64,000 bases of DNA, from sequence record MH051914. One strand, given 5' to 3'. Shown piece after piece: positions 6,280 to 6,482 of this stretch. Each line of letters begins with the position of its first letter. Position 1 is the stretch's first letter. A program made the translations under genes and the position numbers. The notes below the pieces were generated by a model that worked only from the letters and a program-made list of their open reading frames with translations, had not been told where the DNA came from and ran no database searches. Origin of the DNA: Enterobacteria phage vB_EcoM_IME338.

Positions 6280-6482
6280 AACCTTAGTTTTCGTTGCGTA
6301 GCGTCTATTTTGCAAATCTAAAATAAATGCAAACGACAATGTTTTTCTGGCAGTAGCTTGATAGGCTAAACACCAGTGAGGTCTTCCAATCCCTCATCAA
6401 AGAATTTGGCGTACTCGCCCACGGTATGATTAATAAGGTGGGCATCTTTAAGGGCTTTCTAAGAGAGTCTTTAAAGATTAAT

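Follow-up and report, generated by a model that had tools for sequence, protein, structure and literature searches.

The interval at 6286-6482 of the window, that is, of the 64,000-nt stretch of Enterobacteria phage vB_EcoM_IME338 (MH051914) analysed here, is well supported as a small-RNA gene that is derived from tmRNA and has no tRNA-like domain. Its predicted product, an RNA of ~200 nt, would correspond to the central, mRNA-like part of tmRNA. The source phage is a Felix O1-like myovirus (Felixounavirus), and 281 phage records, with few exceptions from Felixounavirus or its relatives, match the region surrounding the element (5500-7300) at 80-97% identity. The element sits inside a cluster of 22 tRNA genes (4992-8994), with tRNA-Ile (6160-6235, identified with ARAGORN) as its upstream neighbour and tRNA-Arg(TCT) (6483-6559, plus strand, 69.7 bits) as its downstream neighbour. 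ARAGORN called neither a tRNA nor a tmRNA between these two genes, and the gap contains only short ORFs, which the homologous elements of other phages do not share, in agreement with an original prediction that about 200 nt without a tRNA or a plausible ORF precede tRNA-Arg.

The element carries a resume context and a tag reading frame of the tmRNA type (6323-6364, plus strand). That is, ATAAAT is followed by GCA at 6329, and the frame beginning there (6329-6358; GCA AAC GAC AAT GTT TTT CTG GCA GTA GCT) specifies ANDNVFLAVA, the host tag being ANDENYALAA. The frame is closed by TGA (6359-6361) and by a second in-frame stop, TAG (6362-6364). Positions -6 to -4 relative to the resume codon are A-U-A, the same as in E. 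coli ssrA, where the GCA resume codon of the tag is preceded by AAUAGUC. The frame that the loci from unrelated phages have in common consists of AUAAAU, GCA AAC GAN, seven further codons and a stop. A degenerate pattern, which fixed several tag positions and left codons 4-6, codon 8 and the stop codon free, retrieved at least 120 further stretches from IMG/VR. Among the 134 loci analysed, which encode 18 tag peptide variants, the frame is exactly 10 codons long in every case and codon 11 is invariably a stop (TAA in 114, TGA in 17 and TAG in 3), and the other two frames are not maintained across the copies. Mean entropy over the same loci is 0.98 at third codon positions versus 0.44 and 0.47 at the other two, and all four Ala codons are in use at codon 10. 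Furthermore, Cba120 differs from a close relative by GCA->GCU and AAC->AAU, i.e. by two synonymous and no non-synonymous changes. The pattern also caught genuine Firmicute tmRNAs, with tags such as ANEENYLMAA (Ruminococcus) and ANEDTLLMAA, and the phage tags therefore fall within natural tag diversity. In addition, the Rfam tmRNA_permuted model aligns the 6323-6364 stretch to its own tag consensus. Judged from sequence, this coding signature argues that the frame is read by ribosomes, in which case a tRNA-like domain would be needed in trans.

The stretch before tRNA-Arg folds better than its shuffles (z = -3.89). To define its structure, 57 non-redundant copies were aligned, and helices were drawn by hand and then tested for pairing and covariation; RNAalifold, run on 27 sequences, recovered one helix only. 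A hairpin resembling tmRNA helix 5 spans 6347-6376 on the plus strand (CTGG at 6347-6350 with CCAG at 6373-6376; inner pairs 6354-6357 with 6365-6368) and holds the stop in its loop. Its outer pairs are formed in 99.6% of cells, and in 24 of the 57 sequences G-C has been replaced by A-U on both sides. The hairpin is followed, at the position of PK2, by an H-type pseudoknot (6377-6409, plus strand), in which TGAGG (6377-6381) pairs with CCTCA (6392-6396) and the loop sequence CCAA (6386-6389) pairs with TTGG (6406-6409). In the 57 copies, stem 1 of the pseudoknot is paired in 95.8% of cells, with both-sided changes at three of its five pairs, and stem 2 in 91.2%, with both-sided changes at all four pairs; in a variant lineage stem 2 consists of GUCG/CGAC in place of UCCRR/YYGG. 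Taken as a whole, the tested structure is paired in 91% of cells, compared with 33-56% when the partners are slid against each other, and contains 125 double-sided changes, compared with 41.6 in shuffles. The hairpin and the pseudoknot thus both covary. On the 5′ side of the resume codon, at the position of PK1, the minimum-energy fold of the window copy has an A/U hairpin (TATTTT/AAAATA with an 8-nt loop; 6306-6325, plus strand), in place of which other lineages carry GGGUUUUUAGAAAC...ACC. The segment from the 5′ end to the resume codon occurs in three lineage-specific versions, and a covarying PK1 pseudoknot upstream of the resume codon was not established in the alignments.

The 3′ part of the element contains two further hairpins. 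The stem of hairpin 3 (6417-6443, plus strand; GCCCAC/GTGGGC) varies in length and sequence between copies while its complementarity is kept, and its 15-nt loop, GGTATGATTAATAAG in the window copy, includes the conserved GAUUAAUAA (loop GUGAUUAAUAA conserved among copies). The terminal feature (6444-6482, plus strand) is made up of a 16-bp hairpin (6444-6478) and a TAAT spacer, and replaces the AGGTAAGAGCATT...AGTGCTCTTTCC module of other phages; locus L106 has the module at the same position. The 3′ arm of this terminal hairpin is the motif that had been proposed to be common to the 5′ flanks of tRNA-Arg and tRNA-Leu. At the level of sequence the proposal turned out to be weak, as TTTAAAGATTAAT occurs exactly only once in the window, its matches with up to 3 mismatches number 89 versus 60 expected, and the tRNA-Leu copy requires an indel. 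What the two sites do share is an architecture, that is, the 3′ arm of a long hairpin (6444-6478 before tRNA-Arg, 7050-7142 before tRNA-Leu), then UAAU, then the tRNA. The window copy of the element ends in a hairpin without a U-tract, and then the tRNA follows; RNase P cleavage at the 5′ end of tRNA-Arg would set the 3′ end of the small RNA. A third long stem, a perfect 24-bp one (GTAATTATCTTTGTAGATAAG... / ...CTTATCTACAAAGATAATT; 5852-5996), surrounds a structured RNA segment of ~100 nt, and its end lies 4 nt upstream of tRNA-Lys, which begins at 6001. Folding of the 5640-6000 region gives z = -3.9, and relatives annotate a minus-strand 'hypothetical protein' across 5852-5996.

The weak Rfam matches of the element are to tmRNA families only (RF00023 and the permuted forms RF04321 and RF01849-51; clan CL00001). 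The window copy gave a tmRNA match of 15.2 bits over 6293-6482, which is below the 47-bit gathering score and is the only tmRNA-like Rfam match at E<=1 anywhere in the 64 kb. Other loci reached up to 29-31 bits with tmRNA_permuted, also sub-threshold. The Rfam alignments agree on the resume and tag region only, and no Rfam match covers the positions of a tRNA-like domain (7-bp acceptor stem with G3:U70, T-arm and 3′ CCA). Likewise, ARAGORN with default settings found no tmRNA in the window, nor in 26 of the 27 representative loci. The sole positive, L106, is a permuted tmRNA call that joins distant tRNA-like pieces. Under relaxed settings the tag was recognised in most loci, with tRNA-like domains and boundaries that are inconsistent from one locus to another. 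Among the candidates considered there is no acceptor piece common to all carriers, P1 and the small siphoviruses having no comparable piece near the element, and no sequence complementary to the 5′ end of the core (CGAAAAC) was found near the element in the phages.

Three candidate partners were considered and rejected. A tRNA-like piece at 6702-6784, called by neither ARAGORN nor the Rfam tRNA model, has an acceptor stem of 7 bp, ends in GCCA, and carries a T-arm whose loop is UUCAACU as well as an anticodon-type loop of 9 nt, CUUCCAACA. It was dismissed as an acceptor domain because it looks like a variant of tRNA-Gly(UCC), a tRNA-Gly being annotated at the equivalent place in Erwinia phage Pistou; it may alternatively be a decayed form of that tRNA. 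A permuted tRNA-like piece at 5776-5827 comprises a T-arm (5776-5792), a 3′ acceptor strand (ACTCGGC-A), 3 nt, a 5′ acceptor strand (GTCGAGT) and a canonical D-arm. Its counterpart in L106 reads ACCCTTC-G-CCA / GAAGGGT, i.e. it shows a compensatory change and an encoded CCA. This piece was ruled out as the partner since it is confined to Felixounavirus and close relatives. Finally, the flanking AAGAGCAUU/AGUGCUCUU module does not qualify as a pair of acceptor strands in either standard or permuted order, as it has no G3:U70, no free CCA and no T-arm where one would be required, and it is missing upstream in the promoter-driven copies. In its recurrent form the module reads (CACAAC)AGGTAAGAGCATT - 45-90 variable nt, sometimes with a T-arm - AGTGCTCTTTCC(GTTGTGG), and it flanks both the tmRNA-like core and tRNAs in unrelated phages (loci L005, L009-L011, L013-L016, L024, L051, L057 and L106, and P1 in L155). 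Its stems are conserved or co-vary and its apical part is hypervariable. It may represent a processing signal or a tRNA-like punctuation element.

The RNA is predicted to have its own promoter. A sigma-70 promoter at 6251-6279 on the plus strand (TTGACA at 6251-6256, a 17-nt spacer and TATAGT at 6274-6279), which was part of the original prediction, is real in that it matches at 11 of 12 positions and is the top promoter-like site in the 4000-10000 region, where such sites overall are at chance level (13 found vs 13.6 expected). Transcription of the small RNA would begin from it near A6286. Sequence clusters from unrelated phages point to the same start: in 10 of the 27 clusters a promoter of at least 9/12 has the end of its -10 box 6-12 nt before the invariant GUUUUCG, and (A)GUUUUCG is therefore the predicted beginning of the primary transcript. 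In the remaining clusters a long hairpin or a tRNA-like module abuts GUUUUCG. The 5′-terminal motif, TAGTTTTCGT, lies at 6285-6294 on the plus strand, and its GTTTTCG (6287-6293) is present in the alignments of all 27 clusters, one Pantoea copy having GUUUUCA instead. The motif resembles, and takes the position of, the GGUUUCGAC D-loop analogue in genuine tmRNAs, of which it may be a mere remnant. The suggestion that the interval could encode a small RNA or a processed leader holds in part. A small RNA with its own promoter and a 3′ end set by tRNA processing fits all findings, among them the promoter-to-RNA distance kept in 10 independent phage lineages and a conservation reaching far beyond the close relatives. 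The interval is not a generic leader, however; the suggestion overlooked the tmRNA-like tag frame, helix 5 and the pseudoknot, and the motif put forward for it is weak.

The 5′ end also matches host tmRNA in the antisense direction. UAGUUUUCGU (6285-6294) is perfectly complementary to nt 97-106 of E. coli ssrA, i.e. to tag codons 3-6, and 8-12 nt of complementarity between the 5′ end and ssrA 96-107 are found in 25 of the 27 clusters. This complementarity was noticed post hoc and assessed in silico only. RNAduplex applied to the full-length RNAs returned a meaningless 190-nt duplex, and exact complements were counted instead. Five ssrA positions (97-100 and 236) have a complementary 7-mer that is conserved in at least 15 of the 27 clusters, a number that mononucleotide-shuffled ssrA attains in 0.3% of trials. 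The position at 236 reflects the loop of hairpin 3, whose UGAUUAA is complementary to ssrA 236-242, a match that alone is not significant. Moreover, the host sequence CGAAAAC is kept in no phage tag among the 134 loci, so that the RNA does not target itself.

The core is widely distributed among phages. A sensitive blastn search (query 6236-6482) found it in 593 phage records from unrelated families, almost all of them unannotated for the element; ~250 of these records are of the Felixounavirus type. The core (6287-6443, with the blastn matches at query positions 85-209, window 6320-6444) is 71-87% identical to unannotated DNA of unrelated phages. Carriers include Kuttervirus (Cba120, PhiSH19), Schitoviridae (TR2, ShWW44), a T5-like Klebsiella phage, Swiduovirus, Akiravirus and Roufvirus (Aeromonas), and Klebsiella siphoviruses, as well as at least 120 IMG/VR contigs. 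With a query of the prophage type, matches were obtained in 691 of 5426 complete E. coli genomes. Some 590 of the E. coli copies reside on P1-like phage-plasmids, and the chromosomal ones belong to lambdoid prophages, where they are flanked by Q, the antiterminator gene, and by the holin gene. P1 itself (NC_005856, 68791-69145) encodes a complete, unannotated element with the tag ANDDLMMVAA in the leader of the C1-controlled ban operon. There, an annotated "dicF-like region" is immediately followed by the element and then by tRNA-Asn and tRNA-Thr, i.e. the region is an RNA island composed of a DicF-like sRNA, the tmRNA-like RNA and two tRNAs. Its location in the P1 ban leader and in the Q-holin interval implies that the element would be expressed during lytic growth. 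In TR2 the element is present without a downstream tRNA and has a terminator after it.

As to function, we tentatively favour, at a little below an even chance, a model in which the tmRNA-derived coding piece acts as an alternative tag template in trans-translation while docked on host tmRNA. Its own sigma-70 promoter would drive synthesis of the RNA, whose 3′ end would be freed when RNase P cleaves tRNA-Arg. The parts that it retains would be those read by the ribosome, namely the A/U-rich resume context, the 10-codon GCA frame, the stop in the helix-5-like loop and the downstream pseudoknot. In the infected cell the RNA would join trans-translation as an alternative tag template, with its 5′-terminal UAGUUUUCGU docking on the tag region of host tmRNA (nt 97-106), so that SmpB and a tRNA-like domain charged with alanine would come from the host RNA. 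The polypeptides rescued in this way would gain (A)ANDNVFLAVA in place of (A)ANDENYALAA. A bolder version of the model, which we consider unlikely, is that of a horizontally mobile tmRNA coding cassette, lacking a tRNA-like domain, that docks on host tmRNA at nt 97-106, and possibly also at 236-242, and reprograms the rescue tag in lytic growth. If true, this would amount to an RNA-level parasitism of ribosome rescue that is common to P1, Felix O1, Vi1-like, N4-like, T5-like and lambdoid phages. Several points speak against a docking template. The tRNA-like domain is absent in or beside the element, and we know of no way for a separate RNA to be read in trans-translation unless it is held by extensive pairing to a tRNA-like domain. 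In addition, a translating ribosome would unwind the 10-bp duplex on the host tag frame, the duplex does not obviously put the phage resume codon in the A site, and thermodynamic prediction does not appear to make the seed more accessible than the remainder of the RNA (unpaired probability 0.46, vs 0.44 for the RNA as a whole). The Pantoea copy with GUUUUCA and the possible origin of the 5′ motif as a D-loop remnant count against docking as well.

The lack of a tRNA-like domain would also suit, as would a seed that is complementary to ssrA 97-106 and sits, as is common among base-pairing sRNAs, right at the 5′ terminus, an inhibitor or decoy of host trans-translation whose tag frame is itself untranslated. 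Here the 5′ seed would pair with the host tag frame and block loading or reading of the message, or else the mimic of the message domain would titrate the C-terminal tail of SmpB, ribosomal protein S1 or RNase R. There is a precedent in the RNA of mycobacteriophage DS6A, a tmRNA fragment that consists of the tRNA-like domain (TLD) only and acts as an inhibitor. However, a pure antisense RNA or decoy has no need of a codon 11 that is a stop in all 134 loci, whichever of the three stop codons is used, nor of a fixed length of 10 codons, synonymous substitutions or a tag resembling natural degrons; we regard this explanation, the main rival, as somewhat doubtful. Alternatively, the element could be the coding piece of a multi-piece phage tmRNA whose acceptor is encoded elsewhere, in the flanking tRNA-like modules or at 5776-5827. 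Two-piece tmRNAs do exist in nature, tRNA-like modules with T-arms adjoin the core in many loci, and in Felixounavirus a T-arm and a 3′ acceptor strand directly precede the 5′ acceptor strand that belongs to them. The window and L106 differ in these strands by compensatory changes, and L106, in which GCCA is encoded, provides the piece used in the permuted tmRNA called by ARAGORN. This proposal is nevertheless decidedly unlikely, since no partner is shared by all carriers, the 5776-5827 piece being restricted to Felixounavirus and close relatives and such a piece being missing near the element in P1 and the small siphoviruses. Furthermore, the modules have neither G3:U70 nor a free CCA end, no complement of the 5′ end of the core is present nearby, and the relaxed ARAGORN boundaries disagree between loci.

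The remaining explanations assign the element no role in trans-translation. It could be what is left of a captured tmRNA gene in decay, or else an inert leader or spacer that does no more than equip tRNA-Arg with a promoter and processing signals, as might be thought from the missing tRNA-like domain and from its site in a tRNA cluster rich in hairpins and in pieces resembling tRNA pseudogenes. This is very improbable given the 71-87% conservation across unrelated families, the compensatory changes in three helices, a frame that is intact in every copy, and the existence of an element without a downstream tRNA, followed by a terminator, in TR2. Some GenBank relatives carry a minus-strand (hypothetical) CDS, and an AUG overlaps the resume codon in most copies, so that the sequence could instead encode a conventional small protein, either a 46-aa one from the minus-strand ORF at 6305-6445 or MQTTMFFWQ from the overlapping AUG mini-ORF. 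Yet the open frames on the minus strand differ in frame and sequence between lineages, the AUG is missing in the Cba120 and T5-like copies, and the mini-ORF has 7 or 9 codons and no Shine-Dalgarno sequence, which leaves this explanation scarcely credible. The idea that the element is a Y RNA bound by a Ro60-type protein was rejected as well, as there is no Rfam match to Y RNA or YrlA and the 471-aa protein encoded upstream has no PDB sequence match. That protein (3411-4826, plus strand), immediately upstream of the tRNA/RNA cluster, contains DUF2828 and DUF7788, belongs to PHROG 850 ('RNA-binding protein') and is annotated as vWFA in relatives. It may be a Ro60/TROVE-like partner of odd tRNA-like RNAs.

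Compared with tmRNA (SsrA), the element shares a non-AUG GCA resume codon, a 10-codon tag that starts with A-N-D/E and ends with small hydrophobic residues and Ala, one or two stop codons in a helix-5-like loop, a pseudoknot immediately 3′ of it, and a GUUUUCG that resembles GGUUUCGAC. Unlike tmRNA, it has no acceptor stem, G3:U70, T-arm, CCA or long helix P2, it would be ~170-200 nt long instead of ~360 nt, it has one clear pseudoknot instead of four, it scores 15-31 bits against a threshold of 47 bits, and its predicted transcription start falls within the part that corresponds to the tRNA-like domain of tmRNA. Two-piece (circularly permuted) tmRNAs are found in Alpha- and Betaproteobacteria, cyanobacteria and some phages, e.g. 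the OM43 methylophage (PMC9004378). Like their coding piece, the element would be a separate RNA with a resume signal, a tag frame and a pseudoknot, and the phage sequence hardly differs from CAAAaccaUAAaUGCaAACGAuAA, the tmRNA_permuted consensus. However, a genuine coding piece starts with the 5′ acceptor strand and is co-transcribed and base-paired with its acceptor piece, whereas the element is predicted to start at (A)GUUUUCG and has neither such a strand nor a shared acceptor piece. The tmRNA database papers list phage tmRNAs, found with ARAGORN and BLAST, in mycobacteriophages, Bacillus phage G and a few dozen others. They also describe the TLD-only fragment of DS6A, indicating that phages keep half-molecules able to interfere with trans-translation. 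The element is likewise a phage-borne partial tmRNA, but it is the opposite half: DS6A has the tRNA-like domain without a tag frame, and the element the reverse.

Similarity also exists with the 5′-seed sRNAs of enterobacteria and prophages such as DicF, whose 5′ terminus carries a conserved motif of 7-10 nt that is complementary to one particular host RNA, and which are located in phages or prophages and are made from a promoter or by processing. The element differs from these in that the window copy has no U-tail of a Rho-independent terminator, and in being much larger, more structured and endowed with a coding-type frame. Stable RNA species 1 and 2 of phage T4 (rnaC and rnaD) are small RNAs of unknown function that lie inside a phage tRNA cluster and are released by tRNA-processing enzymes; we know of no tag frame in them. 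An ordinary leader of a tRNA operon, finally, would not be 71-87% identical in unrelated phage families with compensatory changes. The literature that was searched, including the tmRNA database papers and their supplements, does not describe the element, and the form that keeps only the message half of tmRNA appears to be new, an earlier mention in the older P1/dicF literature being possible.

What defines tmRNA is that a single functional unit combines a tRNA half with an mRNA half. A widely conserved and evidently selected RNA that has the mRNA half only, and whose frame bears all the marks of being read, would imply either that trans-translation accepts a template in trans or that a phage RNA subverts ribosome rescue. 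Both options are directly testable because the element is present in P1, within the repressor-controlled ban operon, and in Felix O1, which are easily handled phages of E. coli and Salmonella. In practical terms, hundreds of phage genomes, therapeutic and reference ones alike, gain a missing gene, and several of the "hypothetical proteins" whose annotations overlap the element are probably spurious.

A number of other features were observed near the core or elsewhere in the window. A second conserved non-coding element, GTCCAGACGATATCTGAGTGACTT(A)AAAAACAGATGG(G)AGCCAGGTGGAA.CCCTGGCAA, was found near the tmRNA-like core in a Klebsiella phage and several Schitoviridae-like contigs (L005, at ~255-330, and L010, L052, L069 and L073). 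In the Kuttervirus Cba120 (L004), a 1.5-kb stretch without any annotated gene holds the core together with several tRNA-like RNAs (420-520 and 860-1065 of the locus), which have large insertions and encoded CCA ends and are called by neither ARAGORN nor Rfam. Downstream of tRNA-Arg in the window, TAAGGAGGTGGTCTGTATCTC (6603-6623) is a near-perfect complement of the 3′ end of 16S rRNA, i.e. a 'super Shine-Dalgarno'. Distant Ounavirinae (Erwinia phage Pistou, L008, and L106) keep it at the equivalent intergenic site, with no conserved ORF after it. In addition, the window contains two group I introns, at 39987-40270 on the minus strand (62.2 bits) and at 56675-56999 on the plus strand (55.9 bits), both of which score above the Rfam gathering threshold.
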